Of a DNA stretch of 64,000 nt, positions 7,668 through 61,284 are shown piece by piece. The notes under the pieces were generated by a model, which worked only from the letters and a program-made list of their open reading frames with translations, ran no database searches and was not told the DNA's origin. Positions within the stretch are counted from its first letter, which is position 1, and each line of letters opens with the position of its first letter. A program made the position numbers and the translations under genes. The DNA comes from an uncultured candidate division Zixibacteria bacterium (lineage in GTDB: Bacteria; Zixibacteria; MSB-5A5; UBA10806). The stretch is from NCBI GenBank assembly GCA_963817915.1, contig CAWFQL010000012.1:639877-703876 (forward strand), read 5' to 3'.

Positions 7668-7671
7668 TTCG

Positions 7672-7830
7672 CTGTTGTAAGCAGGGTCTAAAGACCCCGA
7701 TGGGAAGATGGTGAGATGCCATCACAGCCCCGCTACTGTAAGCGGATAAGCGCCATGATATAAGCCACTCCGGAAAGCCGGGGGAAGGCATGGCCGCCTC
7801 GCAAGAGGTTCGCAAGTCAGGATACCATCG
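7672..7830 (+). ncRNA. Cobalamin (B12) riboswitch
   Basis: Conserved elements in order: GGGAA, GGTGAGATGCC, CAGCCCCGCTACTGTAA, GCCACT...GGGAAGG, B12-box AAGTCAGGATACC. Upstream of a TonB receptor. Boundaries approximate. Confidence 0.93.
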
Positions 7831-7867
7831 CATGAATAATCACTTACCTTCGAGGGCGAGGTTGGGA

Positions 7868-27045: not shown

Positions 27046-27051
27046 TCCGAT

Positions 27052-27127
27052 GTCCGTAGGGGCGGCCATTGGCCTGAGAAAGAACCCTCCGAACCTGAAA
27101 CGGGTAATTCCGGCGTAGGGAACGGAC
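27052..27127 (+). ncRNA. TPP riboswitch
   Basis: P1 GTCCGT/ACGGAC, AGGGG, CTGAGA, ACCC..GAACCTGA, GGTAAT.CC.GCGTAGGGA; upstream of thiM. Confidence 0.95.
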
Positions 27128-27197
27128 TTACGGCCACTGCAAGGGTGGTCCTATTGTCGCAATTTCCGTTACGCCGCAAAATATATATGGAGCAGCT

Positions 27198-27998
27198 ATG
27201 AAAAATCTAAATTTGGATGTTATGCTGAAGACGATCAGGCATGACCATCCGCTCATTCATAATATCACCAATTACGTCGTCATGAATTTTACCGCCAATA
27301 CTCTTCTGGCGATGGGCGCGTCACCGGTGATGGCGCATGCGCCTAATGAAGTCGAAGAGATGGTATCGCTGGCCAAGGCCCTGGTAATAAATATTGGCAC
27401 GCTGTCGGATCATTGGATCGATTCGATGATAAAGGCCGGCAAAAAAGCCAATCAACTGGCTGTGCCGATAATTCTCGATCCTGTCGGTTCCGGGGCAACC
27501 TCGCTTAGAACCAACACATTCAAGAAATTGGCGAAGGAGCTTGATATCTCCATAATCAGGGGCAACGCGTCAGAGATTCTGTCAATTGCATCTGATGATA
27601 TTAAAACCAAGGGAGTTGACACGGCTCACAATGTCGATCAAGCGACCGAAACAGCGATGAAGGAAGCTCATCAGCTTAATTCGATCGTCGTCATTACCGG
27701 GCCGATCGATTTGATTACTGACGGCAAAAGCATTATTCGCTGCAGTAACGGCCACCCGCTATTAAGTTCGATCACTGGTACCGGATGCGCCTCGACTGCG
27801 ACTATCGCGGCATTTGCGGCGGTATCTGTCAATATGATGTTTGCAGCTGCGGCAGGGCTGGCGTTTTTTGGAATGGCTGGTGAAATTGCCGCTGAAAAAG
27901 CCAAATCACCCGGATCATTTATGGCCGCATTAATCGATGCCATGTATGAGATTACTCCTGAGCAATTCGCAGACATGGCGAAGCTGGAACTATGCTGA
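27198..27998 (+). CDS. thiM: Hydroxyethylthiazole kinase
   Basis: PLIHNITNYV, GASPVMA, INIGTL, LDPVG, RGNASEI, TGTGC. Confidence 0.96.
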   Translation: MKNLNLDVMLKTIRHDHPLIHNITNYVVMNFTANTLLAMGASPVMAHAPNEVEEMVSLAKALVINIGTLSDHWIDSMIKAGKKANQLAVPIILDPVGSGATSLRTNTFKKLAKELDISIIRGNASEILSIASDDIKTKGVDTAHNVDQATETAMKEAHQLNSIVVITGPIDLITDGKSIIRCSNGHPLLSSITGTGCASTATIAAFAAVSVNMMFAAAAGLAFFGMAGEIAAEKAKSPGSFMAALIDAMYEITPEQFADMAKLELC

Positions 27999-28684
27999 TT
28001 TCAATGATAGATAAATCGAAAATCGATTACTCTCTGTATCTTGTGACCGATAGAGAATTATCTTTTGGTCGAAGTAACCTCGATATAGTTATGGCGGCAG
28101 CCAATGGCGGTGTAACGCTGGTGCAATTACGCGAGAAAAAAGCGACCACCGCCCAATTTTATGAAGAAGGCCTCAGGATAAGTGATTTTCTGAAATCGAG
28201 AAATATCCCTCTCATAATCAATGATCGAATCGATCTCGCATTGGCTCTTGACGTCGATGGTGTGCATATAGGATCAGACGATATGCCGCTCGATATTGCC
28301 AGAAAAATCCTCGGCCCCGATAAAATAATAGGCGTATCGGTGTTCACGGTTCAGGACGCGATCAACGCGGAATCCGGAGGCGCGGATTATCTTGGACTTT
28401 CACCAATATTTATTACCGCGACAAAACCTGAGCTGACCGCTCAAATTGGTATTGAGGGCATCCCGGCAATTAGTAAAGCTGTGAATATTCCGATTGTTGG
28501 AATCGGCGGGCTGAATCAAACCAATGCTTATGCGGCTATTTCAGCAGGTTTAGATGGAATCGCAGTAGTTTCGGGTATCTGCTCGCAAAAGAGTCCAACT
28601 ATGGCAGCAAAGGCAATCAAAGCCGAAATTATGCGCGCGAGAGGATTGTTTCTAAATGGTGTCGCGCATGGGGAATTGAAATGA
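27992..28684 (+). CDS. thiE: Thiamine-phosphate synthase
   Basis: LYLVTD, VQLREK, IINDRID, GVHIG..D, T.TK, VGIGG. Confidence 0.96.
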   Translation: MLISMIDKSKIDYSLYLVTDRELSFGRSNLDIVMAAANGGVTLVQLREKKATTAQFYEEGLRISDFLKSRNIPLIINDRIDLALALDVDGVHIGSDDMPLDIARKILGPDKIIGVSVFTVQDAINAESGGADYLGLSPIFITATKPELTAQIGIEGIPAISKAVNIPIVGIGGLNQTNAYAAISAGLDGIAVVSGICSQKSPTMAAKAIKAEIMRARGLFLNGVAHGELK

Positions 28685-29685
28685 AGCTGAAGGAAATTGG
28701 CGAATTCGGATTTATCGATCGTATCAAGAATGGCTGCTTTATAAGAGAGAAAAATGTCATAAAAGCTATCGGCGATGACTGTTGCGTATTTAGAACATCA
28801 TCCAATCTTGTCACTCTCCTTACGACAGATATGCTTGTGGAAAATATACATTTTCTACGCGAGCCGATGTCAACATTCAAATTGGGCCGAAAATCATTGG
28901 CGGTGAATATCTCCGATATTGCCGCAATGGGCGGTACGCCCCGCGAGGCTGTCATCTCAATTGCAATACCCGATTCAATCAACGTGGAATATCTCGATAG
29001 TCTTTATAATGGCATGAAAGCGATAGCCGGCGAATTCGATGTAAATTTGCTCGGCGGGGATACGACTGCCTCGCCCCAACATCTCGTAATCAATATCTCT
29101 CTTGTAGGCGAGATTGCCGAAGATGAAATTCTATATCGTTCAGGGGCAAAGGCGGGAGATAAAATTTTTCTGACCGGGACAATTGGCTCTTCGGCCGCCG
29201 GATTGGATTTGATTCTATCAAATCGCGAATTCGAGAAAGGCGAAGAACTGATCGAAGCGCATTTTAATCCCCTTCCTCATATAAAAGCCGGGCGGCAGAT
29301 TGCGATATCAAAATTGGCCAATTCCATGATTGATGTTTCCGACGGAGTAGCCTCCGATTTAGGGCATATATGCATTGAATCGAATCTCGGGGCGGTTATT
29401 GACGAATCCCAATTGCCAGTAACGGAATTATTTAAAAATTATTGCAAAGAATTTAATCTCGATTTTGAAAAGCTGTCATTGCATGTCGGCGAAGACTATG
29501 TACTGCTGGGAACTGTGCCGGCTGAAAATTCTGCCAAGCTCAGTGCGATTCTCAATGCAAATGGCTGCCAATTATATATTATAGGCGAAATGATTAATGG
29601 TTCGGGCATTAAAATTAAGGGCTTCGATGGCAATCTGCGTCCAATAAAGGCGAGCGGATATGATCATTTTAAAAGCGGACAATAG
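28681..29685 (+). CDS. thiL: Thiamine-monophosphate kinase
   Basis: GEFGFI, IGDDC, VNISDIAAMGG, GGDT, IDVSDG, GEDY.L. Confidence 0.96.
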   Translation: MKLKEIGEFGFIDRIKNGCFIREKNVIKAIGDDCCVFRTSSNLVTLLTTDMLVENIHFLREPMSTFKLGRKSLAVNISDIAAMGGTPREAVISIAIPDSINVEYLDSLYNGMKAIAGEFDVNLLGGDTTASPQHLVINISLVGEIAEDEILYRSGAKAGDKIFLTGTIGSSAAGLDLILSNREFEKGEELIEAHFNPLPHIKAGRQIAISKLANSMIDVSDGVASDLGHICIESNLGAVIDESQLPVTELFKNYCKEFNLDFEKLSLHVGEDYVLLGTVPAENSAKLSAILNANGCQLYIIGEMINGSGIKIKGFDGNLRPIKASGYDHFKSGQ

Positions 29686-29697
29686 GGGTATATCGAT

Positions 29698-30492
29698 ATG
29701 ATGAAAAATTGTGTCGCGCTGACAATCGCGGGCTCCGATTCCGGCGGCGGCGCTGGAATTCAAGCCGATCTAAAAACATTCTCCGCGCTGGGCGTATATG
29801 GAACAAGCGTAATTACCGCGATAACCGCACAGAATCTGAAAGGAGTCTATGCTATTCAGGCAATCGATAAAGATGTCGTGCGTGAGCAATTGAAGGCAGT
29901 TCTGAAGGGCTTTCCAGTCAAAGGAATTAAAACCGGAATGCTATATTCAAGCGAAATAATCGATACTATTGCGGAAGTCCTGGAAGATTACAAATCAATT
30001 TCACTTATCATTGACCCCGTTTTCGCGGCTACGTCTGGCAGCAAACTCATTCAGGATGACGCGATCGCATCGCTGACTGAAAAATTATTTCCTTTGGCAA
30101 GCTTGATCACCCCGAATATACCGGAAGCGGAATTTCTTACAAACCAATCCATCAGGACGGTCGATGACCTGAAAAAGGCTGCCGAAATGCTTTATAAGAA
30201 ATTCAACGTCCCATTTCTGATGAAAGGCGGCCATCTGGATGATTCCGCCGATGATGTTTTGTTTGATTCCGAAGGCATGATAGTTTTCCAGGGTAATTCG
30301 ATAAAAAATGTAAATAACCATGGTTCGGGGTGCACATTATCCTCGGCCATAGCCGCCGAATGCGCCAAGGGGAGCCAACTTAGAGATTCAGTTCGTATCG
30401 CCAAGGATTACCTCTACAATGGCCTGAAAAATAGCCATAATCTTCAAGACGGTGTAAACGTCATTGACCATTTTTGGCGCTGGTTTAGATAG
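29698..30492 (+). CDS. thiD: Hydroxymethylpyrimidine/phosphomethylpyrimidine kinase
   Basis: TIAGSDSGGGAGIQADLKT, TAQN, TPNIPEA, KGGH, HGSGCTLS. Confidence 0.97.
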   Translation: MMKNCVALTIAGSDSGGGAGIQADLKTFSALGVYGTSVITAITAQNLKGVYAIQAIDKDVVREQLKAVLKGFPVKGIKTGMLYSSEIIDTIAEVLEDYKSISLIIDPVFAATSGSKLIQDDAIASLTEKLFPLASLITPNIPEAEFLTNQSIRTVDDLKKAAEMLYKKFNVPFLMKGGHLDDSADDVLFDSEGMIVFQGNSIKNVNNHGSGCTLSSAIAAECAKGSQLRDSVRIAKDYLYNGLKNSHNLQDGVNVIDHFWRWFR

Positions 30493-30630: not shown

Positions 30631-31128
30631 TTGATCAAAAAAGACCAGAATCAGATTTTTGAAGAGCTGTATCATCTTCAAAATTGCGAATTGGCGTTAG
30701 GTGAGTATTTCAATGAACTCGCCCGATTATATCCAGATGAAAAATGGTTTTGGGAACAGGCAGTCGGCGAGGAAGTTAATCATGCCCGGCAGGTTGGCCG
30801 TCTCATCGCCCAGGTATCATCTAATCTCAACAAATTTGCGTTCGGACGATATAGAGTGGAATTACTTAAGACATTCTTAGATGGTATTTATGCCAATGTC
30901 CAAAAAATCAGATCGAAGCAGTTGAGCCGCCCTGAGATTTTGCAGATCGCCCTGGACTACGAGACATCGTTTATAGAATCCAAACCCTATGATATTGTCA
31001 GTTCAGCTGATTCCGATTTCCTGCTTTTTAAGACGACCTTTTCTGAGGAGCTGCTGGAGCATACCAGTAAAATGAAAGCCTATATCCAGCAGAAGCTTGC
31101 GACCGCCGTCGCAGCCAATCAGCCTTAA
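30631..31128 (+). CDS. Ferritin-like (rubrerythrin-like) helical protein
   Basis: E...Y...FW.....EEVNHA and ALDYE...ELLEH di-iron-type pattern; TTG start. Confidence 0.6.
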   Translation: MIKKDQNQIFEELYHLQNCELALGEYFNELARLYPDEKWFWEQAVGEEVNHARQVGRLIAQVSSNLNKFAFGRYRVELLKTFLDGIYANVQKIRSKQLSRPEILQIALDYETSFIESKPYDIVSSADSDFLLFKTTFSEELLEHTSKMKAYIQQKLATAVAANQP

Positions 31129-31252: not shown

Positions 31253-32359
31253 ATGTCCGAAAAGATGAGGGCAGTAGTAAAAACAAAACCGGAATTGGGA
31301 GCTGAATTAAGAGAAGTCCCGATTCCCAAAATCGCCGATGACGAAGTACTTGTCAAGGTAAGCGCTACTTCTGTCTGCGGTACAGATGTTCATATTTATA
31401 AATGGGATAATTGGTCTCAAAATAGAATCGGAGCCAAAGCTCTGCCGCAGATTCTTGGCCATGAAGTAGCTGGCGAAGTCGTGGAAAAAGGCAAGTTCGT
31501 AAAGAAAATCTCGATAGGCGATTATATCTCTGCCGAAACCCATATACCGTTTACCGGCGATCTTCAATATTTGCTGGGTCAGGCCAATATTGGAGAGAGG
31601 ATGAAGATTCTCGGAGTCGATCGCGACGGAGTATTCGCCGAATATGTCGCGGTGCCTGAAATCGTATGCTGGGTCAATGATAAATCAATTCCGCCGGAAT
31701 TCGCTACAATTCAGGAGCCATTGGGCAACGCTACCTACTCGGTTCTCGGAGAAGACAATGATGTCGCCGGCAAATCGATGGTTATTATAGGCGACGGGCC
31801 GGTAGGGCTTTTCGCGACAGGAGTCGCCCGCGCGGTCGGAGTGACCAATATATTTCTTGTAGGAATCAGCAGATTCGCGCTTGAAATTGGCAAGAAAATG
31901 GGCGCCGATCATATCCTGTATGCCGATGATAATTCAGTCGATCGAGTTGCCTATGTTAAGGATCATACCGGAGGATATGGCGCCGATATCGTTCTCGAAT
32001 TAGTTGGAGCACAACAGGCCATAAATGAGGGATTTCAGATGATTCGCAAGGGTGGCCGATTCACCGCCTTCGGCGTGGTTTCCAGCCCGACAGTTACTAT
32101 TGATTACAATGACGGCATAGTATTCAAGGGATGCCAGATCCATGGTATCAATGGCCGCAAAATGTTCGATACCTGGTATCGAGTTCGAAATCTCCTTTCG
32201 TCAGGAAGACTCGATATTTCGCCGATAGTCACTCATAAAATGAAGCTTGAAGATTTTCCAAAGGCATTCGAAAATATGATGGCAATGCCCCGCAAAACCG
32301 GGAAGATTGTTCTTTTTCCCGATAGCAAAGAATTGGAGATGGCGCAAAAGAGAAATTAG
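31253..32359 (+). CDS. tdh: L-threonine 3-dehydrogenase-like MDR enzyme, atypical (no structural-Zn Cys)
   Basis: CGTDVHIYKWD.WS, GHE, SAETHI, EPLGNA, GINGRKMFDTWY. Confidence 0.85.
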   Translation: MSEKMRAVVKTKPELGAELREVPIPKIADDEVLVKVSATSVCGTDVHIYKWDNWSQNRIGAKALPQILGHEVAGEVVEKGKFVKKISIGDYISAETHIPFTGDLQYLLGQANIGERMKILGVDRDGVFAEYVAVPEIVCWVNDKSIPPEFATIQEPLGNATYSVLGEDNDVAGKSMVIIGDGPVGLFATGVARAVGVTNIFLVGISRFALEIGKKMGADHILYADDNSVDRVAYVKDHTGGYGADIVLELVGAQQAINEGFQMIRKGGRFTAFGVVSSPTVTIDYNDGIVFKGCQIHGINGRKMFDTWYRVRNLLSSGRLDISPIVTHKMKLEDFPKAFENMMAMPRKTGKIVLFPDSKELEMAQKRN

Positions 32360-32438
32360 ATTTTTCCGTGATATTGCTTCAATCGTGAATTGAAGTATAT
32401 TAGTAGTAGTATGGTGTGCGTGTCTGGGTGGTGAGTGA

Positions 32439-32816
32439 ATGATTTTTGGTGTTGGAAATGATATTCTCGAAGTAGCGCGGCTCAAGCGCGAAATTGATGG
32501 CGACGGCGTTTCTTTTTTAAATTCAATTTTTACATCCAAAGAAATAGAATATTGCCAGTCCAAGCGGTATCCTGAACGGCATTTTGCCGCTCGCTTTGCC
32601 GCCAAGGAAGCTGTCATTAAGGCATTTGCTGTAGGAAAGCCGCATGACTTGAGCTGGAATGATATCGAAATCCTCAATTACGAGGACGGTCGGCCATTCA
32701 TTCAATTGTATTCGAGGGCGGAGGATTTGGCACTTGCGCTGAAAATAACCGGCATTCATTTATCGCTTTCGCATACAAGCGAATACGCATTGGCAAACGT
32801 GATTCTGGAGACATAG
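32439..32816 (+). CDS. acpS: Holo-[acyl-carrier-protein] synthase (4'-phosphopantetheinyl transferase)
   Basis: GVGNDILEV.R, FAARFAAKEA..KA, G.P, LSLSH. Confidence 0.95.
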   Translation: MIFGVGNDILEVARLKREIDGDGVSFLNSIFTSKEIEYCQSKRYPERHFAARFAAKEAVIKAFAVGKPHDLSWNDIEILNYEDGRPFIQLYSRAEDLALALKITGIHLSLSHTSEYALANVILET

Positions 32817-32846
32817 ATAGTGTAATTGTGGAAGAAGGGATGTGGA

Positions 32847-34547
32847 ATGAGCAACATTGGTTCGTACGACAAAAGACTTAAGGATTTCGATTGGTCATTA
32901 AGTGAAAAAGAACTCGGCTATAAGAGCGGAGACAATATCAATATCGGGTGGTATTGCAGCGATCGTATCTGCGAGATTGGCCAGGCATCGAAGAAAGCCT
33001 TGATATGGGAAGACCACAAAGGGGCCAGCGAGACATTTACATTCGATGATCTCCGGGTGTTATCCAATACATTCGCGAAATATCTTGTCGATCTGAAAAT
33101 CAAACCGGGCGAGCGAGTTTGTATTTTCATGGATAAGGTTCCGGAATTATATCTGTCATTTTTAGGAATTTTGAAAATGGGGGGAGTCTGCCAGCCGCTA
33201 TATTCAGCTTTTGGCGACGAGTCATTATTCACAAGGCTCGATAACGCCAAAACATCGGCGATTATCACTCAGAAGAAGCACCTGCCAAAAATCCGCAAAA
33301 TTCGCGAGCAGTTGCCATCGTTGAAGCATATTATCATTGTCGATGCCGCCAATTCCCAGCTTGGCGATCGAGAATTGGTGTTCGATATGGAATCTATGCC
33401 GCGTGTCGAATCATTCGAATGTTATCCATCGAAGGCCGATACGCCGTCGGTCCTGCATTATACATCAGGGACAACAGGACAGCCCAAGGGTGCACAGCAT
33501 GTGCATTACTCGCTGATTTCACAATATATCACTGCCAAATGGGTTCTCGATCTCAAGCCTGATGATATCTACTGGTGCACCGCCGATCCTGGATGGGTTA
33601 CAGGTATTTCCTATGGCGTAATCGGCCCCTGGGCCAATGGCATAACCCAGGTAGTATTGGATTCGGGATTCAGCGCCGATAACTGGTATGCCTTTATACA
33701 AAAACACAAGGTTACTGTCTGGTATTCCGCCCCGACAGCGATAAGACTCTTGATGCGCGAGGGCACTGTCACCGTAAAAAAATATAACATGAAATCGCTA
33801 CGCCATCTTTGTTCGGTCGGTGAGCCGCTCAATGCCGAAGCTGTCATCTGGTCGAAAGAGGCATTTGGGATGCCATTCCACGATACATTCTGGCAGACTG
33901 AAACAGGCTCCATCGTTATCACTAATTATCCCGGTATGAAAATCAAACCCGGCTCAATGGGAAAACCGTTTCCGGGGATTAAGGCTACTGTGGTTGACCC
34001 CAAGACTTTCGAGCCGATCTCGAAACCTGGCGTAGTCGGCCTAATAGCTCTCAAGCCGGGCTGGCCTTCGATGTTTCGCACCTATTGGGAAAATCAGGAG
34101 AAGTACGACAGCAAATTCAAGAATGGCTGGTATCTCTGCGGCGATAGAGCCAGTATCGATGAGGAAGGCTACTTCTGGTTTGTCGGGCGCGATGATGATG
34201 TCATAAATACCGGCGGCCATCTTGTTGGGCCATTCGAGATAGAATCAGCATTGTTGGAACATCCCGCAGTCGCGGAATCAGCCGCTATCGGCAAGCCCGA
34301 CGCTGTCAATATGGAAGTAGTCAAGGCGTTCGTGGCGTTGAAGCCGCTCTTTCAGCCATCCGACGATCTCGATCTGGAAATCATGAATTTTATCCGCAAG
34401 AAGCTTTCACCTCTGGCCATGCCGCAGGAAATTGAATTCGTAACTTCGCTTCCCAAGACCCGAAGCGGCAAAATCATGCGCCGCCTGCTTAGGGCCCGTG
34501 AATGGGGCGAGCCGATAGGGGATATCTCTACTCTGGATAATGATTAA
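32847..34547 (+). CDS. Acetate--CoA ligase-like adenylation enzyme (short, AcsA-like); possibly acyl-ACP ligase
   Basis: YTSGTTGQPKG, CTADPGWVTG, SVGEPLN, DTFWQTETG, GR.DD, LPKTRSGKIMRR. Confidence 0.9.
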   Translation: MSNIGSYDKRLKDFDWSLSEKELGYKSGDNINIGWYCSDRICEIGQASKKALIWEDHKGASETFTFDDLRVLSNTFAKYLVDLKIKPGERVCIFMDKVPELYLSFLGILKMGGVCQPLYSAFGDESLFTRLDNAKTSAIITQKKHLPKIRKIREQLPSLKHIIIVDAANSQLGDRELVFDMESMPRVESFECYPSKADTPSVLHYTSGTTGQPKGAQHVHYSLISQYITAKWVLDLKPDDIYWCTADPGWVTGISYGVIGPWANGITQVVLDSGFSADNWYAFIQKHKVTVWYSAPTAIRLLMREGTVTVKKYNMKSLRHLCSVGEPLNAEAVIWSKEAFGMPFHDTFWQTETGSIVITNYPGMKIKPGSMGKPFPGIKATVVDPKTFEPISKPGVVGLIALKPGWPSMFRTYWENQEKYDSKFKNGWYLCGDRASIDEEGYFWFVGRDDDVINTGGHLVGPFEIESALLEHPAVAESAAIGKPDAVNMEVVKAFVALKPLFQPSDDLDLEIMNFIRKKLSPLAMPQEIEFVTSLPKTRSGKIMRRLLRAREWGEPIGDISTLDND

Positions 34548-34578
34548 TCTGAAATTATAGATGATAAAGGAGAAGTGT

Positions 34579-34827
34579 ATGGATGATATGAAAAAAATGA
34601 TCCTCGATTACGTCAAGAAGGAGTATCTGGAAGCTGATGATGACAGAGAGATAGATGAGAATACGCCGCTTATTTCGGGCGGCATCGTCGATTCATTCTC
34701 GATGGTTTCGCTGAAACGATTTCTCGAAAAGAAATATGTTATTCAGATTCCGGACGTGGATGCTTCACCCGAGGCGTTCGATTCAGTAAATAAGATTATC
34801 GTATTGGTGAATAGATTCAAGAAGTGA
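34579..34827 (+). CDS. Free-standing acyl/aminoacyl carrier protein
   Basis: Acidic 82-aa protein; LISGGIVDSFSMV phosphopantetheine motif (Ser codon 34693-34695); AAGGAG RBS. Confidence 0.9.
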   Translation: MDDMKKMILDYVKKEYLEADDDREIDENTPLISGGIVDSFSMVSLKRFLEKKYVIQIPDVDASPEAFDSVNKIIVLVNRFKK

Positions 34828-34877
34828 TAGGATTTTAATAAATTGTTGAATGGTGGATTTTTGGGTTAGGAGGAGTT

Positions 34878-36125
34878 GTGGCATACAGCAATAAATCTCG
34901 TGAAATGTATCTACAGGATATTCAAAATATCCGTGATGCGGGAATCTTCAAAGAAGAACGATATATACATGCCCCGCAGGGCGCGGAGATCGAAGTCGAA
35001 TTTCCCGCAGGGGCATCGACCAAAAAAGTAATCAATATGTGCGCCAATAATTATCTCGGCTTGTCGAGCCATCCTGATGTAATAAAGGCGGCGCACGAGG
35101 GCCTCGACTATCGCGGCTACGGAATGTCATCGGTTCGTTTTATCTGCGGCACTCAGGATATTCATCGCGAACTTGAAAAGAAACTCACTGAATTTCTTGG
35201 CACCGAGGATACTCTGCTGTTTCCATCCTGCATGGATGCCAACGCCGGTGTCTTCGAGGCCATACTGACCGATCAGGATGTCATGATCGCCGATCGCCTC
35301 GTTCATGCGTCCATAGTCGATGGTATGAGGCTTTGCAAGGCGATGCAGGATACATACAAGCATTCTGATATGGAGCATCTCGAATCCAAATTGCAGGAGC
35401 ATCAGGATAAACGGTATCGTTTGATTATCACCGATGGTGTTTTCTCCATGGATGGCGACTTGGCGAAATTAGATCAGATAGTCGCATTGGCCGAAAAATA
35501 TGACGCTATGGTGTTTGTAGATGAATCGCATGCATCCGGATTTATCGGCAAGACCGGACGAGGCACCCATGAGCACTGCGGCGTGTTCGGCAAGATTGAT
35601 ATTATCACGACTACATTGGGCAAGGCACTTGGCGGCGCTTCAGGAGGCTGTGTTAGCGGCAGGAGAGAGATAGTCGAATTATGCCGTCAAAAGGCGAGAC
35701 CGTATCTCTTTTCCAATACAGTCGCGCCGGTAATTGTCTCTGGAGCATTGAAGGTAATGGATCTTATTTCTAAGAATACATCCAGCCGCGATAAGCTCGA
35801 ACAAAACACGATTTACTGGCGCAGGCTTCTCAAGGACGCCGGCTTCGATATAAAGGAAGGCGAGAGCCCGATAGTACCGGTCATGCTTTACAACGCTAAA
35901 TTAGCGCAGAATATGGCCCGCGATCTTTATGCCGAAGGTATTTACGCCATCGGATTTTTCTTCCCGGTTGTCCCCAAAGGCCAGGCGCGTATCCGCACCC
36001 AGCTTTCGGCGGCTCATGAAAGACATCATCTCGATAAAGCCATCGCCGCCTTTATCAAGGTCGGCCAGAAGCATGGCATAATCGGCAAAGGCAAAAAGGA
36101 AATCATCGAAAGCTACGGGATGTAA
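34878..36125 (+). CDS. kbl: Glycine C-acetyltransferase (Kbl)-like alpha-oxoamine synthase, divergent copy
   Basis: CANNYLGL, SVRFICGTQ, TDGVFSMDG, TLGKALGGASGG, RPYLFSN, ARIRTQ; GTG start with AGGAG. Confidence 0.88.
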   Translation: MAYSNKSREMYLQDIQNIRDAGIFKEERYIHAPQGAEIEVEFPAGASTKKVINMCANNYLGLSSHPDVIKAAHEGLDYRGYGMSSVRFICGTQDIHRELEKKLTEFLGTEDTLLFPSCMDANAGVFEAILTDQDVMIADRLVHASIVDGMRLCKAMQDTYKHSDMEHLESKLQEHQDKRYRLIITDGVFSMDGDLAKLDQIVALAEKYDAMVFVDESHASGFIGKTGRGTHEHCGVFGKIDIITTTLGKALGGASGGCVSGRREIVELCRQKARPYLFSNTVAPVIVSGALKVMDLISKNTSSRDKLEQNTIYWRRLLKDAGFDIKEGESPIVPVMLYNAKLAQNMARDLYAEGIYAIGFFFPVVPKGQARIRTQLSAAHERHHLDKAIAAFIKVGQKHGIIGKGKKEIIESYGM

Positions 36126-36138
36126 ATAAATAATTGTC

Positions 36139-36290
36139 GTGTCGGGTCGCCTGATCCGACACCGGCTTATCCGGGTGGCAGTCGTCATCGACTGCCCCAA
36201 AAGAATCCGGATTGAAGGGGCAGCTGTGGACAGCTGCCGCCCAATCGAATTCCTTTTTTTCTGTAGAGACGCAAGATATTGCGTCTCTAC
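36139..36290. repeat. Cluster of four REP-like palindromes
   Basis: Hairpins at 36139-36162, 36177-36196, 36219-36238 and GTAGAGACGCAA-gata-TTGCGTCTCTAC at 36263-36290. Confidence 0.75.
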
Positions 36291-36403
36291 TTTGCCCCTT
36301 GACGATAATAATTGCAATTGCTATAATGCGTCGCCGGAACTCCCTATGAAATGAGGGAGTTATGCTTTGAAAATAATCCTTATCAGGAGGTATCGGATAC
36401 GCC

Positions 36404-37612
36404 ATGTATGGAGAGTACAAACAATTCCTTTCAATCATGCTCGATGATCTGAAAAAACAGGGTCTCTACAAAGAAGAGCGGATAATCATCACCCCTCAAT
36501 CGGCCGATATCAAGGTCGCACCCGGCAAAGATGTCATCAACATGTGCGCCAATAATTATCTTGGCTTGAGCAATCATCCTCGTTTAATAGCCGCCGCCAA
36601 GAAGGCATTGGATGAGTACGGTTTTGGGATGTCATCGGTGCGATTTATTTGCGGCACTCAGGATCAGCATAAAAAGCTTGAAGCCACTGTCAGCCATTTT
36701 CTGGGCACCGAGGATACGATTCTATTCTCTTCATGCTTCGATGCCAATGGCGGCGTTTTCGAGGCTCTGCTTGGCGGTCAGGATGCGATAATTTCCGATA
36801 TCCTTAATCATGCCTCAATAATCGATGGCACGCGTCTATGCAAGGCGACTCGCTATCGCTATGTCCATGCTGATATGGCCGATCTCGATGCCCGTTTGGT
36901 AGACGCCGAACTCAATGGCGCCAAAATAAAATTGATTGTTACTGATGGTGTCTTCTCTATGGATGGCGATATTGCCAAGCTCGACGAAATTGTCAAGGTT
37001 GCCGAAAAGCATAACGCATTAGTCATGGTTGATGATTCCCATGCCACCGGCTTTCTCGGCAAAACCGGACGAGGCAGTATCGAGCATTGCGGAGTGATGG
37101 GGAAGATAGATATAATTACTACCACATTCGGCAAGGCGCTCGGTGGGGCGTCCGGCGGTTGCGTGTCAGGACATAAAGAAATTATCGAAATGCTTCGTCA
37201 GAAAGCCCGGCCTTATCTATTCTCCAATACCGTTGCTCCGGCCATTGTAGCCGCCGGTATCGAGGCCTTCAACATGCTATCGGAGTCAACAGCCTTGCGC
37301 GACAAGCTTGAACAGAATACAATCTATTTCCGCAAGCAGATGACCGATGCCGGATTCGATATAAAGTCCGGTGTCCATCCCATAGTCCCTATATTATTCG
37401 GCAAATTCCCGGATGACGCCCGTCTGGCGCAGGATTTCGCCCGCGATATGCTCGATGAAGGGATATATGTAATCGGATTCTTTTTCCCGGTAGTTCCTAA
37501 GGGTCAATCTCGTATCAGAGTTCAAATTTCCGCCGGGCACGAGCGACATCATCTCGATAAGGCTATTGCGGCGTTTATAAAAATTGGCAAAAAATATAAA
37601 GTGATTTCGTAA
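36404..37612 (+). CDS. kbl: Glycine C-acetyltransferase (2-amino-3-ketobutyrate CoA ligase), canonical copy
   Basis: GLYKEERII, CANNYLGLS, SVRFICGTQ, SSCFDANGG, D.LNHASIIDG, DDSHA, GKALGGASGG. Confidence 0.93.
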   Translation: MYGEYKQFLSIMLDDLKKQGLYKEERIIITPQSADIKVAPGKDVINMCANNYLGLSNHPRLIAAAKKALDEYGFGMSSVRFICGTQDQHKKLEATVSHFLGTEDTILFSSCFDANGGVFEALLGGQDAIISDILNHASIIDGTRLCKATRYRYVHADMADLDARLVDAELNGAKIKLIVTDGVFSMDGDIAKLDEIVKVAEKHNALVMVDDSHATGFLGKTGRGSIEHCGVMGKIDIITTTFGKALGGASGGCVSGHKEIIEMLRQKARPYLFSNTVAPAIVAAGIEAFNMLSESTALRDKLEQNTIYFRKQMTDAGFDIKSGVHPIVPILFGKFPDDARLAQDFARDMLDEGIYVIGFFFPVVPKGQSRIRVQISAGHERHHLDKAIAAFIKIGKKYKVIS

Positions 37613-55536: not shown

Positions 55537-55614
55537 TATTTCCAAAATTACCGGCCCGATTATATTTCGCGCCGCGCAGGGCTCTGTAGTTGCCATTTCT
55601 GCGTCAGGACACAG

Positions 55615-55941
55615 GTGATTAAATTGGATAGCCCGCAGCCGAACCCCATCAACGATCAACCGGTACCGTCGCAGCCGGTGGAAGCCATGCCTGACGATGT
55701 CTTGAAGTCCGATGCCGACGTCCTAGCCTCCGACGTCTTAGGCTCCGATGTCTCAGGCTCCGATGTCTTGGGCTCAATCGACATCGAACAGCAATCGCAA
55801 GCTGAGTCCGCCACCGGCCTGCGGAGAGTGAGAGCGCTATGGCCAATGGCATTGATTGCTGTAGCCGGCGTCGCCACCGTCGGATGGCTGGTCGGGTTAG
55901 GCTGGGCCGCGGTCGCGCTGGTTCGAACGCTTGCAGACTAG
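55615..55941 (+). CDS. Small membrane-anchored hypothetical protein with DVLxS repeats
   Basis: Acidic repeat region plus C-terminal TM segment ATVGWLVGLGW; start uncertain. Confidence 0.55.
   Translation: MIKLDSPQPNPINDQPVPSQPVEAMPDDVLKSDADVLASDVLGSDVSGSDVLGSIDIEQQSQAESATGLRRVRALWPMALIAVAGVATVGWLVGLGWAAVALVRTLAD
55696..55776 (+). repeat. Imperfect 15-bp coding tandem repeat (5 copies)
   Basis: GATGTCTTGAAGTCC, GACGTCCTAGCCTCC, GACGTCTTAGGCTCC, GATGTCTCAGGCTCC, GATGTCTTGGGCTCA. Confidence 0.8.
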
Positions 55942-56252
55942 AGCACAAAATTGAAAAATTGAGATGCTTTCATCATTGCGCAAACGATCATGCCCCATAG
56001 AGCGAAGTTGATTTCGAGTGCGGCCAGCATTTGATATCTCCCCGTGTCGACGGACGTCAAACCCGCCGAAGTTGCATTTAAGAATAACGAAGGCCGAGAT
56101 GATTTCCAGTTGTGGCCATGCGGATTGTTGTGGAAAACATCCGTTGACGCAGCGAGCACCTTGAAACTCACGCACGAAATCGGGGAACGCTTCTGCCAAA
56201 AGGGAAGGGCCCCGGATCGCACCGAGGCCCTGGCCGCCCGGGGGATGATGAC

Positions 56253-56603
56253 CTAACCCGAGAATTGCCTTGCTCGGTAAGCATAGAACGCTCGAAGGCC
56301 TCGTGCTTTGGCATCACGGCTGGCAGACGATGTTCTGAGTGCGTCCAAGGCTGCGACGAAGTGTGCCACCGCATCTTCCGTGCTCGTTGCCGCCGCCTCC
56401 ATGAGAAGAGCATTATGAATGGTCGGGTTCATTTTCATGAAATTTATGCCGACGGCTTGGAGTGCTGCCGTCAGTTCCACCTGTGCTTGCTTTGCCTGCT
56501 GAAGGTTTATGACCTTTGCCTGCTTTGCTGGCGGAAGGTTTAAAATCTGCGCTTGTTTCGCCTGCTGCAGTTGTTCTCTGGCTGCTTTAAAAATTCCGAA
56601 CAT
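56253..56603 (-). CDS. Hypothetical protein with internal (Q/P)AKQA repeats
   Basis: 116-aa ORF; three AKQA units; helical composition. Confidence 0.5.
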   Translation of the reverse strand: MFGIFKAAREQLQQAKQAQILNLPPAKQAKVINLQQAKQAQVELTAALQAVGINFMKMNPTIHNALLMEAAATSTEDAVAHFVAALDALRTSSASRDAKARGLRAFYAYRARQFSG

Positions 56604-56938
56604 ATCTTGACGCCTTACCGGGAACGGAAAGCCAAAGCTTAGCAGTTCGCGCGGAGGATGGCGATTTTAAGGGCGTGGTAGCTCGGTAGGGGACGCCAAT
56701 GAATCACGTCGCGCCCGCCACGGTCGCAGGGTTCGTGCGCCAGCTGCCATTCGGCTGACGATGTCGGGGTGCCGAAATTCCGATGATCCGGTTAAGCCGA
56801 CGCGGAGACGGGACCCACGCCGGGATCTCACGGTGAAGCGGTACACCCCTGACATGCGCTGACTTTCCTCGCCGGGTTTGTCGTCAGGCGGTCGTCTCCA
56901 CCGGTGCGAATGCAAGGTACGGTCGTGCGGGTGACGAC

Positions 56939-57250
56939 CTAGTACCTAACCGAGACCACCGGCTGTCCTGCGGCGCGGCAGCACACCCCGGGGGGCGGAC
57001 CGTAGTAATGAGTTGTTCCCGGATACCAGCCGTAGCCGAAGAATGGTACGGTCAACGGGTTACCGCCCCGTACGCCCTGTATCAGCTGGCTGGGAGCACC
57101 CCGGCCGTAATAATACCGATGGTGGGGCACTGATCGGGCGATTGGAGGCGGGGTTTCGATGATCTCGGCCGCCCTGGCTGCGCCGGCAAACCCGGATACG
57201 CTGGTGGTCAGCAAGGCAGCTGCGGCGAGATTTCGAAGTGAAGTCGACAT
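56939..57250 (-). CDS. Small secreted Pro/Tyr/Gly-rich hypothetical protein
   Basis: GGGGAG RBS before ATG 57250; signal peptide MSTSLRNLAAAALL...ARA. Confidence 0.6.
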   Translation of the reverse strand: MSTSLRNLAAAALLTTSVSGFAGAARAAEIIETPPPIARSVPHHRYYYGRGAPSQLIQGVRGGNPLTVPFFGYGWYPGTTHYYGPPPGVCCRAAGQPVVSVRY

Positions 57251-57361
57251 TCGTTGCTCCCCTTTTGGGGTTGGGTGTGCACCGGCACGGCTTACGCAAT
57301 TTGCAGTTTGCCCTACCTTGGCAAAGAGAGGAAGGCCCATCAGAGACTGAAGACAATGCCT

Positions 57362-57908
57362 TCAGAGTCTCTCTAGCGTGATGAGGGGGGCGCGGGCGCA
57401 GAATTCTCTCGACCGGATACGTTCTTGCGCGCGGCGCCAAGCGCCGGAGTATGATACACTGCATTCGCTATTGCTACCGATGGACTCGCCGGGAACCGAG
57501 ACAAACGTCGTACCAGTCTGCACGTCGAATATTTCAACGCTCGTCCTTAGCGCGCACACTTTAGCAGGATCGACAACGTCGCCGATGCTCACGATCGCTC
57601 GCACGAGTTTCGATGGATGTGATGCCGGCACGGAAATCGACTCCCCGGCCTTCAATTGCACCGTCGTCGGCTTGCCGATCAGGGAACCGTCAGCGCCAAA
57701 GAAACTCACCTGCACTTGGCATGGGGCTAGATGAGTACCATTCGCGGGTGCGAGTACATTCGAGACAATGGCGCGCGCACTCTGACCACCAGTGAGAGAC
57801 ATGGCTGCGAAGCGGGCGCCTTCGACCCTGGGCGAAGCCGATAGCGCAACGGCCTGCGTCTAAATTACCGATGGCAAGGGCCAAACCTGCAAATAGAATT
57901 GTTTTCAT
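57362..57908 (-). pseudogene. Secreted beta-rich hypothetical protein, frameshifted near 57810-57860
   Basis: Signal peptide MKTILFAGLALA (GGGAG RBS) is in a different frame from the body ORF 57362-57802. Confidence 0.5.
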
Positions 57909-58412
57909 TTTTGTCTCCCCAATTTCCCGGACGCCCGCCGGTGATCCAAAACTTCATAAGTGCTGGGCCCGAAGAACGTTCGAAAACACGCCACTCAAAA
58001 ATCCCTTTTCATACGAATGAACCAAAACCCGGATTGGGCCTCGTTAAGCTCGATCGCTGCCCCGCACCTGGCTTTCTCGCTCGAAAGTACAAGCCCTGGC
58101 GTCGGCTAAACCGCCGAATTTGCTGCGCTAACTTAGCAGACCGTCGCCTGCCCCGCCAAGCCAATGGCCGCGCGGGGCGCCGCGGGAAAGGGCGTCCAAT
58201 CCGCTAATCCCGCTTGTCAGGCATCCGTCAGGCTCGATGCGAGGGAGGATGGCGCAACAACTCCATCGTGGGCAACTGGGCGCAGGAAGTCGGGCGCGTT
58301 AAGGCCGATCCCGTCGTGATCGACAGGTGCGCTTTAACATCTGTGCAATCGCGCCCGCCGCTCCGGCCATAACAAACTTACTGATCGCGAATTTGCTTCC
58401 GTCCATCTTGGT

Positions 58413-59321
58413 TTAACGCTTTCCTGATGACATCCCGTTTGCTCTTGGCGGCCATTTACAGGCCACTGCCAGTTTTTCGCGCACCGCATCCAATCCGGCG
58501 AGCTGGAACGCTGCTTCATGGCTGGGACCGGGCCCATCGAACACCTTGATTTTCAGTTGCGCGCCTTCTGGTAGCGATCGCAAAAGCCCGACTGCTTGAC
58601 CTTTGTAACTCGCGATCTTTCCGTGCCCAGACACAGCCCAGGGTAGCCTAACGAAGGGTTGCTCGTTGATTTGATAGGCGACTTGAACTTCGCCGGCGCG
58701 CGACGCGCGCCATGTCCCCTCCGTGCGAACCTGGAGTTCGGTGAATAGTGCACTACATCGAATAACGAGAGTGTTCGGCGCGTCCTTCACCTTCGACGGC
58801 GAACGCAGTGCCGCGGTGATCAAAGGGGTGTAATCCACGGGTGAGGTCATTTCGCTTAAGACCCAGTTTGTATTCTGTGGTTTTGTCGGGATATCGACGG
58901 ATCGCGCGGGCAAGTTTGGCGAAACTGCTGCAGTCGGTTCTTCTGGTGAGACGGTTGCCCCGGGCTTTTCCGCCGGAGCTGTTCCAGTGGACTTGTCTGG
59001 CGAGACGGTTGCACTGGGCGTTTTTTGCAGAACCGCTCCGGTGGAATTGTCTGGCGATACAGTGGCAGCGGGCGTTTCCGCCGGTGCAGATCCAGCAGGC
59101 ATTCCTGGCGGAGTGTGCTCCAAGCATTCGCGCGCCATCCTGCGTGCGTTCCGGCAATCAGAGCTCTCAACCGCATCAATTCTCGGGTCATAACAAATCT
59201 CGGCGGCAGTGCGAGCCAGTCGAAGGCAAAATTCGATGCCCGTCACTCTCTCGTTCGCCGGTTGAGCGCAGACAGCCGCGCTCACACCGGAGAGCACGAT
59301 GGCGATTAACGCTACCCGCAT
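58413..59321 (-). CDS. Exported protein with Pro/Ala/Thr-rich linker and VasI/TagO-like C-terminal domain
   Basis: TGATG overlap with the TAXI gene; signal peptide; ATVSP repeats; W..SE..SPVD...LVIRC...F.L.GL...C.W. Confidence 0.55.
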   Translation of the reverse strand: MRVALIAIVLSGVSAAVCAQPANERVTGIEFCLRLARTAAEICYDPRIDAVESSDCRNARRMARECLEHTPPGMPAGSAPAETPAATVSPDNSTGAVLQKTPSATVSPDKSTGTAPAEKPGATVSPEEPTAAVSPNLPARSVDIPTKPQNTNWVLSEMTSPVDYTPLITAALRSPSKVKDAPNTLVIRCSALFTELQVRTEGTWRASRAGEVQVAYQINEQPFVRLPWAVSGHGKIASYKGQAVGLLRSLPEGAQLKIKVFDGPGPSHEAAFQLAGLDAVREKLAVACKWPPRANGMSSGKR

Positions 59322-60346
59322 CACGGATGCCCGCTTTGTCTGGTCGTATTTGGCTTGGTCGTATTCGCACGATCGAGCCACTCCTGGGCGGCTTGAAAGC
59401 GCTTTAAGCCAGGGGCAGGTGTGGTTAGATCGACGTCGTGCCATTTCGGGTCGAAGCCGGGCGACTGCAGTCTGTCCACCCGAGTGAAAAGCTCATCAAC
59501 AAAACGCGCAAGTCGACGATAGCGCGGCGATCCCGGACTCCAGTTGTGCGAGGCAAGAACTGTCGGAACCGCAATCGTGGCGATCCGCTCGCCCTTGGCG
59601 ATCAGGTTGGGATAATCCGTTGGCTCAAGATGCGAGGGGAGATAGTAATCTTCGAATTTCGCCTCATATTCGACCGGCAGGAATTTGAAACCCTCCTCCC
59701 ATTTTCCCCTTACGAAGGTGTCGACGGGCTTCGACGTCACAAAGACGACGGCGGCAATCTCTCCACGCCTCATCTGCTCCAGAGCGACAGGGTGGGGGAT
59801 AAACAGCTTCTCGACATCCAGGCCGAGGCGGCTGAAAATCAACGGACCGGAGTAGGCGGCGGCGGTACCTTGGGTATTGAAGTTGACCTTCTTGCCGGCC
59901 AAGTCCGCGAGCGATCGAATTTCCGGCCGAACGAAGATGTGCAACTCTGAGGGAAAAAGACTTAGAATGTAAGTAATGCGCTGCTGGATTTGCGGTACTT
60001 CGGATTTATACTCTTCAAGCGAGTTACTGTTGATGATCGCCGCATCAATCCCTTTGAGGTGCAATAGATCGTTTACATTTTCGGTGGGACCGCGCGTTAC
60101 GATTGGGAGAACGTGCATTGCACCGCCGTCGTTCACCACTCGGGCGATTTCCGCCGCGAAATGGATGGGGGCACCCTCCAGCAGACCACCGGCCAGGCCT
60201 ATCGTCGATGCATTGAGCCGATCTCTGATCTGTGCCTCGCTCGAAATGGCAGGCCGATGATAAGTTCGAGGGGATTGCGCGATACCTGAACCGCAGAGGG
60301 CGAACGTAACGATCAAGAGGGCTGCAAGTTTTGTCACCACTGTCAT
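59321..60346 (-). CDS. TAXI family TRAP-type solute-binding protein
   Basis: Signal peptide; G..EN..DLL.L.G.D.AI, E.HI..R..I.S..DL.GKKVN, YPNLI, TIAV..VL. Confidence 0.85.
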   Translation of the reverse strand: MTVVTKLAALLIVTFALCGSGIAQSPRTYHRPAISSEAQIRDRLNASTIGLAGGLLEGAPIHFAAEIARVVNDGGAMHVLPIVTRGPTENVNDLLHLKGIDAAIINSNSLEEYKSEVPQIQQRITYILSLFPSELHIFVRPEIRSLADLAGKKVNFNTQGTAAAYSGPLIFSRLGLDVEKLFIPHPVALEQMRRGEIAAVVFVTSKPVDTFVRGKWEEGFKFLPVEYEAKFEDYYLPSHLEPTDYPNLIAKGERIATIAVPTVLASHNWSPGSPRYRRLARFVDELFTRVDRLQSPGFDPKWHDVDLTTPAPGLKRFQAAQEWLDRANTTKPNTTRQSGHP

Positions 60347-60518
60347 GTAAATTCCACTCAACAAAAATTTTGAACACTTGGCGGGCGATCTGACCGTCTT
60401 CAACTTTGACGTCCGTTTGGCCGCCATTCCCCCTTAAATAGAAGCATTGGTAGCGCTGCTCGTCCTCCATGAGGACAGCGAGGCCGCCCCCCGGCAGCTT
60501 ATGGAATTTTAGATTAAA

Positions 60519-60532
60519 TTGATACGGATCAA
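60519..60532. promoter_or_regulatory. FNR/FixK-type binding site
   Basis: Perfect TTGAT-ACGG-ATCAA in an intergenic region. Confidence 0.7.
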
Positions 60533-60624
60533 TGCACTAATGAAAGGCTGTTGGAGCCTGAATGAGCCTCAAAACTGTTTGCGGTCAACTGGTGCTCATT
60601 ACCGCTGGCCCTGTCCAGCAATTA

Positions 60625-60651
60625 GGCCGGCAGAAATGCCGGTCTTTTTTT
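60625..60651 (+). terminator. Orphan intrinsic terminator
   Basis: GGCCGGCA-GAAA-TGCCGGTC followed by TTTTTTT. Confidence 0.8.
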
Positions 60652-60683
60652 GGTAATGACCAAAACCGCGCGAGCCGAGATCA

Positions 60684-60900
60684 GGTGCGATGGGCCTCGA
60701 TTTGGCCAACAGCATTTTTCAGGCTCATGGCGTTGATGCGACCGGGCGGTTTGTTGTTCGCAAGTCGCTTCGGCGGTCGCAGATGCTGCGATGTTTCGCC
60801 AAGTTGCCTTCTTTTTGCCTGGTCGGCATCGAGGCGTGCGGCACGTCGCATCACTGGACGCGCGAGCTGATCAAGCTCAGCCATGAGGTGCGCCTGGCGC
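60684..60900 (+). mobile_element. IS110-family transposase N-terminal fragment (remnant)
   Basis: GLDLA..IFQ.HGVD, RK.LRR, CLVGIEACGTSHHW.REL....HEVRL, then homology ends. Confidence 0.88.
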
Positions 60901-61284
60901 TATGTTCCGTAATCAGTTTCAGAACCTCGTTTTCGTCGCCGCACACAGCGATGCTTTGCCGATCCGCAAAAACGAGCCGTTGATGGCGGCCCACTTCCAA
61001 AAACAGTCGAGCTGCGGCTGAAGACCAGAAAATAACGGCGTGATGCCGAGGATGTTGGTGAAGCCTTCTCACGCTAGTAATCGTATGGCGATTTTCTTCG
61101 TCGCAGTGATCTTAGCAATGGTCGACTGGCTCTTTGCGCTGTCTTGGGATTTACGAAGCTAATCGGCTTCATCTAGCTCAGGAATGTCGCGCAGCAGAAC
61201 GGCGAGAACGACCAACGACGGCGTCCACGCCAGCATTGCTCCAAATAGAATGGCCTGTAGTGTGGTCATCACAGCCCTTCCTTG

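Follow-up and report, generated by a model that had tools for sequence, protein, structure and literature searches.

We examined a 64,000-nt window (the whole stretch of DNA analysed here) from a Zixibacteria genome that is ~94% complete. The window contains six co-directional genes in which relatives of the threonine-catabolism enzymes Tdh and Kbl accompany a 4'-phosphopantetheinyl transferase (PPTase), an AMP-forming acetate ligase and a small carrier protein. An initial annotation of the sequence had read the six genes as one system, and all of them are present as plus-strand open reading frames (ORFs), laid out as follows:

31253..32359, + strand: tdh, encoding a medium-chain dehydrogenase/reductase (MDR)-type (Zn) L-threonine 3-dehydrogenase; first gene of the operon
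32439..32816, + strand: acpS, encoding a 4'-phosphopantetheinyl transferase (PF01648 and TIGR00516)
32826..34547, + strand: gene for an AcsA-type AMP-forming acetate ligase (NF003313); the TTG start is uncertain, with an ATG at 32847
34561..34827, + strand: carrier gene, an 88-aa ORF; likely start at 34579, giving 82 aa
34878..36125, + strand: kbl1, encoding a Kbl-type alpha-oxoamine synthase of the cassette clade (TIGR01822)
36126..36403, no strand: intergenic gap with several palindromes and a sigma-70-like promoter site, parting the operon from kbl2
36404..37612, + strand: kbl2, encoding a canonical glycine C-acetyltransferase; a neighbour outside the conserved unit

Gaps within tdh-acpS-ligase-carrier-kbl1 measure 79, 9, 13 (or 31) and 50 nt. 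The palindrome-rich spacing between kbl1 and kbl2 is 278 nt and holds a perfect 12-bp hairpin at 36263-36290, further inverted repeats and a sigma-70-like site at 36299-36327 (TTGACG-17-TATAAT with a TG extension, 11 of 12 matches). Because this gap contains both palindromes and a promoter-like site, we read kbl2 as a transcription unit of its own. An Rfam scan of the operon gaps at E up to 1 returned no known RNA apart from one chance-level small RNA match.

We searched 285 genomes of the window's phylum, Zixibacteria, with the carrier protein. Strong matches (E <=1e-19) in 110 genomes and one partial match at a contig end gave 111 carrier genomes, against 174 non-carrier genomes. Twenty loci of the phylum, picked by carrier homology, were fetched together with an extra-phylum sample, namely the best 80 loci from a collection in which at least 543 species genomes have a carrier relative; this sample covers about ten other phyla, and all ORFs of the resulting 100 loci were clustered. 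Related genomes are not independent, and tallies of hom and Tdh are given as plain counts.

The recurring element is a four-gene unit of acpS, the AcsA-type ligase gene (acs), the gene for the 82-aa carrier and kbl1. All 20 loci of the phylum have acs, carrier and kbl1 side by side, although in one (L040) just the last 179 acs codons were matched. Among the best 80 extra-phylum loci, acs was found in 73, kbl1 in 77, acpS in 43 and all four genes in 42, with misses falling mostly at contig ends or within frameshifted stretches. Labels in this sample include Acidobacteriota (with Aminicenantes, Thermoanaerobaculia and Holophagae), Gemmatimonadota, Fibrobacterota, Chrysiogenales, Calditrichota, Ignavibacteria, Latescibacterota, Eisenbacteria and a few others. 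Relative to the window proteins, the extra-phylum ligases have a median identity of 72%, the carriers 71% and the Kbl1 proteins 79%. Kbl1 proteins share 70-86% identity across phyla; canonical Kbl proteins of the same phylum are merely 62-75% identical to kbl2. No further gene, such as one for tailoring, occurs in more than 12 of the 100 clustered loci, so the unit is self-contained. Some horizontal transfer seems likely, since the phylum's Kbl1 proteins fall into at least two separate groups among those of other phyla.

The gene arrangement is not due to chance. Its proposed core, a PPTase, an acetate-type ligase and a free-standing carrier, proved to be a real dedicated unit joined by a Kbl paralogue, and the order acpS-acs-carrier-kbl1 recurs widely. 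The idea that tdh and kbl bracket this core holds only locally: kbl2 is a separate unit, and tdh, which neighbours the four genes in the window's phylum, adjoins them in only 2 of the 80 extra-phylum loci, which leaves kbl2 and, outside the phylum, tdh beyond the conserved neighbourhood.

For the carrier, the database gene call begins at Met7 of the 88-aa ORF, yielding 82 aa from 34579, and the predicted phosphopantetheine serine codon lies at 34693-34695. The motif GGIVDSFSMVSLK, quoted in the initial annotation and confirmed in the carrier, is identical in all 24 homologues aligned, which come from several phyla; an invariant 13-residue block runs through the homologues. An AlphaFold2 model (predicted local distance difference test score, pLDDT, 85.6) has helices at residues 2-16, 42-53 and 70-80, with Ser39 just ahead of the second. 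Our mark of a carrier fold was a D-S motif serine at the N-terminus of helix 2, and the modelled protein has its serine in that position. Foldseek ranked PigG as the best structural match (template modelling score, TM, 0.82-0.86), followed by PltL, DltC, a glycyl carrier protein and AcpP. At the level of sequence profiles, the carrier had no match to the Pfam PP-binding family (PF00550) at E up to 0.01, and a homologue fused to a ligase, P0275, reached 19.8 bits, under the cut-off of 20.8. NCBIfam returned weak carrier-protein matches, including 63 bits to the ornithine-lipid acyl carrier protein (ACP) model, which has a cut-off of 130. Three gene calls, P0282-P0284, are candidate AcpS-carrier fusions. 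Two apparent carrier-Kbl fusions, P0278 and P0271, were rejected as frameshift artefacts with Arg-rich out-of-frame stretches.

The ligase scores 768 bits against the acetate--CoA ligase model NF003313, over its cut-off of 729, and its best solved relative is 9g79, a 572-aa acetyl-CoA synthetase (569 bits). It contains the motif HDTFWQTETG, as first quoted, and the observation that it retains the gating Trp of acetate ligases extends to its cassette counterparts: all 74 cassette ligases compared retain the residues that we take to form the acetate pocket (V310, T311, V386 and W414 in E. coli/Salmonella numbering). Of the 18 nearest non-cassette relatives, just 8 have W414. This Trp excludes acids longer than acetate or propionate, and from the intact pocket we infer that the ligase is acetate-specific. 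Clean in-frame ligase-carrier fusions occur in nature, namely P0275 and P0276 (six member sequences on five contigs). Such fusions are what one would expect of a ligase that works on the carrier, and together with gene order they suggest that the ligase's thioester acceptor is the carrier.

AcpS exceeds the cut-offs of both PF01648 (63.4 bits against 25) and TIGR00516 (99 bits against 59.8). Elsewhere the host genome encodes a separate canonical long Acs (C16; 57% identical to E. coli Acs) and a second AcpS (C7:6944-7303; 43% identical), so the cassette's ligase and AcpS are extra copies. Two leads concerning the ligase were discarded. R526L (E. coli numbering) was considered as a carrier adaptation; Leu also occupies this position in 10 of the 18 nearest non-cassette relatives. 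P0121 (949 aa), the top match of the representative search, is not a functional fusion; it is an AcsA homologue interrupted by a LAGLIDADG intein. Searching 104 loci, the window and the genome with E. coli SatP by tblastn revealed no acetate channel near the module, and a motif search was likewise empty.

Both Kbl proteins pass the TIGR01822 cut-off of 493 bits (kbl1, 594; kbl2, 652), with 53% and 60% identity to E. coli Kbl, respectively. The residues N50, H136, S185, D210, H213, T241, K244, S274 and R368, which we take from the E. coli Kbl structure to contact pyridoxal phosphate (PLP) or substrate, are kept in 88 of 88 Kbl1 and 25 of 25 canonical Kbl sequences. The 88 Kbl1 sequences are monophyletic (FastTree support 0.915). 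In contrast with Kbl1, which forms its own clade, kbl2 clusters with Kbl genes of non-carrier genomes and is rarely adjacent to the unit in other loci. Kbl1 is the sole Kbl-type gene in 77 of the 111 carrier genomes, so in most of them the module is the Kbl system; 30 of the 111 have a second. Gene order, co-conservation, the fusions and analogy argue for the carrier as the thiol partner of Kbl1.

One family of the phylum has plain tdh-kbl pairs (G184, G159, G175 and G183), in which neither a ligase nor a carrier was found and whose Kbl is nearest to Kbl1, at 67-68% identity. By sequence, these pairs look like a Tdh/Kbl operon that has not yet gained the ligase and carrier. They also led us to reject seven Kbl1-clade changes (F112M, G116A, N135V, M208F, T254V, S268A and L298R) as carrier-docking adaptations, the same positions being altered in the carrier-less sister Kbl. 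In G184 all seven are non-canonical; five bear the Kbl1 residue, and N135 and M208 are replaced by Ile and Leu, respectively.

The association with threonine dehydrogenase proved to be real and stronger than the initial annotation could tell, although the description of this Tdh as atypical did not hold. The protein falls under the equivalog cut-offs of TIGR00692 (374 bits against 458) and NF003808 (357 against 380). At E up to 1e-40 it has five solved relatives, every one an L-threonine 3-dehydrogenase (2d8a, 3gfb and 2dfv at 332-335 bits, then 5kia and 2dq4), and with Pyrococcus/Thermococcus Tdh as its best match it is not unusual. Other families of the phylum place a gene of the short-chain dehydrogenase/reductase (SDR) type upstream of acpS, and the solved relatives of these proteins are all SDR-type L-threonine 3-dehydrogenases (259-425 bits). 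Of the 110 genomes with strong carrier matches, 67 have a Tdh within 5 kb of the carrier gene, split between two non-homologous types (MDR-type in 34, SDR-type in 33). A further 11 have one at 5-15 kb and 24 farther away or on another contig; 8 have no match, and in one of these (G162) the contig breaks off in a partial match to tdh. When Tdh genes anywhere in the genome are counted, 102 of 111 carrier genomes have one, as do 110 of 174 non-carriers. Recruitment of two unrelated Tdh types to the same spot is strong evidence that the module acts on 2-amino-3-ketobutyrate, and tdh itself is an accessory of the module that is specific to certain lineages.

In 7 of the 100 loci (L048:6393-7145, L049, L045:6817-7560 and others) a YdfG-like NADP-dependent SDR is encoded within ~6 kb of the module. 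These SDRs are relatives of an enzyme that oxidises L-allo-threonine and serine, and they could be a third kind of dehydrogenase partner.

We conclude that tdh-acpS-ligase-carrier-kbl1 probably constitutes a carrier-protein-dependent form of the Tdh/Kbl pathway, because the unit is conserved, the ligase pocket is intact, Acs and AcpS are extra copies, the carrier has the expected fold, fusions occur, Kbl1 is complete and two Tdh types have been recruited. AcpS would load the phosphopantetheine arm onto the 82-aa carrier. Kbl1 would then use the carrier thiol in place of that of coenzyme A (CoA), interconverting 2-amino-3-ketobutyrate plus thiol with glycine plus acetyl-thioester. Judging from gene order and fusions, the ligase would interconvert acetyl-S-carrier, AMP and pyrophosphate (PPi) with acetate, ATP and HS-carrier, and Tdh would join 2-amino-3-ketobutyrate to threonine. 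The net reaction would be Thr + NAD+ + AMP + PPi <-> Gly + acetate + NADH + ATP. Confining the acetyl group to a private carrier pool would let its acetyl/free-thiol ratio float apart from that of the CoA pool, which would help in either direction; the anabolic and catabolic directions are equally workable in principle.

Searches of the literature on acetyl-ACP or carrier proteins with Kbl, acetyl-CoA synthetase or oxoamine synthases found no description of the module, and those on Zixibacteria with threonine and Acs found nothing related, as judged by title and the start of the abstract; the initial annotation, too, had known of no such system. The nearest established pathway is Tdh-Kbl itself (E. 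coli kbl-tdh; EC 1.1.1.103 and EC 2.3.1.29), which has the same enzyme families and probably the same chemistry. The module differs from it by inserting a dedicated PPTase, an acetate ligase and a private carrier, by a Kbl1 that forms its own clade, by a proposed thiol partner that is the carrier and not CoA, and by drawing on two Tdh families according to lineage.

A second point of reference is AasR-AcpR-Spt of Caulobacter crescentus and other Rhodobacteria, in which an ANL ligase acts on a specialised carrier and an alpha-oxoamine synthase (AOS) prefers the acyl-carrier (PMC9386255). Like that system, the module clusters a dedicated carrier gene with genes for an ANL ligase and an alpha-oxoamine synthase. 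It would differ in substrate, with a sequence-predicted preference for acetate and not a long-chain fatty acid, and in using glycine and a Kbl-type enzyme in place of serine and serine palmitoyltransferase (SPT). Further differences are an AcsA-type ligase, a carrier resembling DltC and peptidyl carrier proteins, a dedicated AcpS and no lipid genes. The module's synthase scores 324, 275 and 237 bits against the SPT models NF047600, NF047599 and NF047603, below their cut-offs of 640, 500 and 670. With these scores and an acetate-type pocket, the module would work like AasR-AcpR-Spt without being a member of that group. A sphingolipid or sulfonolipid pathway was rejected on the same two observations.

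The module also resembles pairs of a type II adenylation enzyme and a stand-alone carrier (PigI-PigG, PltF-PltL and DltA-DltC), in that its carrier is nearest in structure to PigG, PltL and DltC and that ligase and carrier are either separate or fused. Those carriers hold aminoacyl groups that amino-acid adenylating enzymes load, whereas the partner here is an acetate-type ligase with an intact pocket. As for a ligase running backward, Acs1 of Syntrophus aciditrophicus (SaAcs1) is an AMP-forming Acs that prefers ATP formation from acetyl-CoA, AMP and PPi (PMC4992975, PMC13404658). SaAcs1 is a precedent for an AMP-forming acetate ligase making ATP in an energy-limited anaerobe; it uses acetyl-CoA without a carrier protein, and is a long (~650 aa) Acs with a CoA-binding loop that is lacking in AcsA-type enzymes. 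Its bias residues G196/T197 were therefore rejected as a marker of direction, the SaAcs1 determinants being unreadable in a cassette ligase that lacks the loop.

The direction in which the module runs must be judged against host metabolism. No hom was found in the host by a search that finds hom in 14 of 14 control genomes, and no thrB scored above cut-off (the best reached just 40 bits). Using tblastn with E. coli queries, we found no HisG/D/H/A/F/I, TrpA/C/D/E, IlvD or LeuA in the host. Without hom, thrB and most of these His, Trp, IlvD and LeuA genes, the host reads as a general auxotroph living on imported amino acids. A ThrC-like gene is present (TIGR00260, 214 bits; G000:C12:486000-497500, L142), and with a CysK-like gene it sits among genes for YgeY, a split SsnA, adenine deaminase, XdhC and PreA. 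By its gene content this cluster looks like selenium-linked purine catabolism, and 'threonine synthase' is probably a misleading name. Presence of ThrC was therefore dismissed as an unreliable test of threonine prototrophy, and hom was chosen as the marker instead.

Across the phylum Tdh is common (212 of 285 genomes) and hom rare (56 of 285: 11 of the 111 carriers and 45 of the 174 non-carriers). The initial annotation had asked whether carriers lack the hom/thrB/thrC route. This is so for hom in 100 of the 111 carriers; it is also so in 129 of the 174 non-carriers, and three of five extra-phylum carrier genomes do have hom. Because 129 of 174 non-carriers lack hom, and 39 of those 129 also lack both Tdh and a Kbl-type gene, auxotrophy is tolerated in the phylum. 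The proposal of a dedicated aspartate-independent route to threonine was not established by these data: the host's gaps extend beyond hom and thrB to His, Trp and branched-chain genes, and hom is present in some carriers. The distribution of hom and Tdh gives no specific indication that the module replaces the aspartate pathway, and fits a threonine-burning scavenger.

The host further encodes glycine-cleavage genes, Pta, AckA and a membrane proton-pumping pyrophosphatase (H+-PPase); no family-I soluble PPase was found in it. Physiological Tdh/Kbl operons are catabolic. We lean slightly towards the catabolic direction in this host, because of its auxotrophy, its glycine-cleavage system and Pta/AckA, its H+-PPase, the abundance of Tdh beside the rarity of hom, and the precedent of an ATP-forming Acs. 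The core and a catabolic direction taken jointly have, in our judgement, somewhat less than an even chance. In the catabolic version, threonine from scavenged peptides would be converted to glycine and acetate, and the ligase, running backward, would turn the thioester into ATP. More tentatively, the module may serve as an energy-conserving threonine fermentation, in which a thioester held on a private carrier yields ATP through a reversed AMP-forming ligase. The private carrier would then allow an acetyl/free-thiol ratio exceeding by far what the shared CoA pool permits. We know of no precedent for substrate-level phosphorylation from an acyl-carrier-protein thioester.

As a side observation, the H+-PPase gene (G000:C12:38257-40438) is split into two adjacent reading frames covering profile positions 1-377 and 372-645, which suggests a frameshift or an assembly error.

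Several observations weigh against a carrier-dependent, catabolic module. The ligases differ from their nearest non-cassette relatives by only two cassette-specific conserved changes, T356S and G556M, and keep R194, R584 and K609, which we take to be CoA contacts. The seven Kbl1 substitutions are shared with the sister Kbl of carrier-less tdh-kbl pairs, and neither Kbl1 nor the ligase has a clear sequence signature that separates CoA from carrier use. Outside the phylum, the scarcity of adjoining tdh genes (2 of 80 loci) is accompanied, in five genomes, by Tdh-like genes that are only 39-44% identical and unlinked. As for direction, a second catabolic branch looks redundant because the host already has kbl2 and Pta/AckA, and hom is missing from 90% of carrier as against 74% of non-carrier genomes, a weak trend towards an anabolic role. 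To our knowledge, no carrier-dependent ANL ligase runs towards ATP. The closest analogue, AasR-AcpR-Spt, loads and condenses (PMC9386255).

The same core might work in the condensing direction only, with ATP-loaded acetyl-carrier and glycine joined by Kbl1 and the product reduced by Tdh, giving threonine independently of aspartate; we consider this possible, and a little less likely than the catabolic version. It would follow the one characterised triad of ligase, private carrier and AOS examined here, which loads and condenses (PMC9386255). It would also suit a host without hom or above-threshold thrB whose ThrC-like gene lies in a purine/selenium cluster, and the lack of hom in 100 of the phylum's 111 carrier genomes. 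Pairing a dedicated PPTase with an ANL ligase is typical of biosynthetic loading modules, and the promoter-like site in front of kbl2 suggests a non-redundant role for kbl1. Such a route sits less well with a host that is auxotrophic for many amino acids besides threonine, with a phylum in which auxotrophy is tolerated (129 of 174 non-carriers also lack hom), with carriers that do have hom (11 in the phylum, three of five outside it) and with the catabolic role of physiological Tdh/Kbl operons. Alternatively, 2-amino-3-ketobutyrate could lose CO2 to give aminoacetone and from it aminopropanol, pyrazines or another small molecule, with the proximity of Tdh being secondary. The isolation of the four-gene unit outside the phylum would then make sense, as would the 8 of 110 carrier genomes without a Tdh match and the YdfG-like SDR that replaces or joins Tdh near the unit in 7 of 100 loci. 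We nevertheless think an amino-ketone product unlikely, given that conserved tailoring genes are missing downstream (none recurs in more than 12 of the 100 loci), that two Tdh types were independently recruited and that Tdh occurs in 102 of 111 carrier genomes; some of the eight exceptions are related to assembly (the contig-end partial tdh of G162, and G059, which is 58% complete).

Two further readings depart from acetyl-carrier chemistry. If the enzymes were ordinary, the ligase would make acetyl-CoA, Kbl1 would use CoA, and the carrier and AcpS would serve another purpose. Ligase and Kbl1 both pass NCBI equivalog cut-offs, have few clade-specific substitutions and, for the ligase, retain the presumed CoA contacts, as this reading would have it. 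Yet the carrier gene lies between the two enzyme genes in nearly every locus, natural ligase-carrier fusions occur, the host has a separate canonical Acs, Kbl and AcpS, and ligase, carrier and Kbl1 are unusually conserved across phyla, which together make ordinary CoA metabolism quite improbable. We assign a very small probability to a lipid or longer-chain pathway (making a sphingoid, sulfonolipid or aminolipid base) or to another short acid such as propionate or glycolate. Here the likeness in architecture to AasR-AcpR-Spt and the carrier's weak match to the ornithine-lipid ACP model (63 bits against 130) are opposed by the sub-threshold SPT scores, by the pocket Trp kept in 74 of 74 ligases, which by the rule given above would exclude longer acids, and by the absence of any conserved lipid acyltransferase or reductase gene near the module in the 100 loci.

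Annotation pipelines label these genes acetyl-CoA synthetase, acyl carrier protein and glycine C-acetyltransferase, and hence metabolic reconstructions of hundreds of uncultured species read the module as ordinary CoA metabolism. If acetyl groups do travel on a private carrier, the module would be a CoA-independent version of a central junction between amino-acid and C2 metabolism. Run catabolically, it would represent a new form of energy conservation from threonine; run anabolically, it would let organisms that lack the aspartate pathway make threonine from acetate and glycine in a few ATP-driven steps. New here are the dual recruitment of Tdh, the tallies of Kbl copy number and hom, the ligase-carrier fusions, the auxotrophy of the host and the finding that apparent clade-specific residues are not tied to carrier use. 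All parts of the module are small soluble proteins and thus accessible in vitro.

Several features of the surroundings deserve mention. In several loci of the phylum (L045:15117-15785, L050:17894-18589 and L063:8086-8754), the module has, at a distance of 3-8 kb, a single gene for a bacterial microcompartment (BMC)-domain shell protein with a long C-terminal tail, and those stretches are not within an obvious full microcompartment locus. Directly upstream of the tdh operon in the window, a thiamine pyrophosphate (TPP) riboswitch (27048-27138, 69 bits) precedes a thiM-thiE-thiL-thiD operon (27048-30492), which shows no sign of a functional tie to the carrier module. Between this operon and tdh is a 165-aa ORF (30631-31128) that has no Pfam or NCBIfam match and is not found beside the module in other loci. 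A cobalamin riboswitch lies at 7663-7848 on the plus strand (81 bits). At the far end of the window, positions 55600-64000, which reach the contig end, have a G+C content of 54-58% as against ~44% elsewhere and few long ORFs. This stretch has no direct repeats and includes an integrase-core (rve_3) fragment at 62005-62544; it could represent mobile or foreign DNA, or a contig end joined in error.

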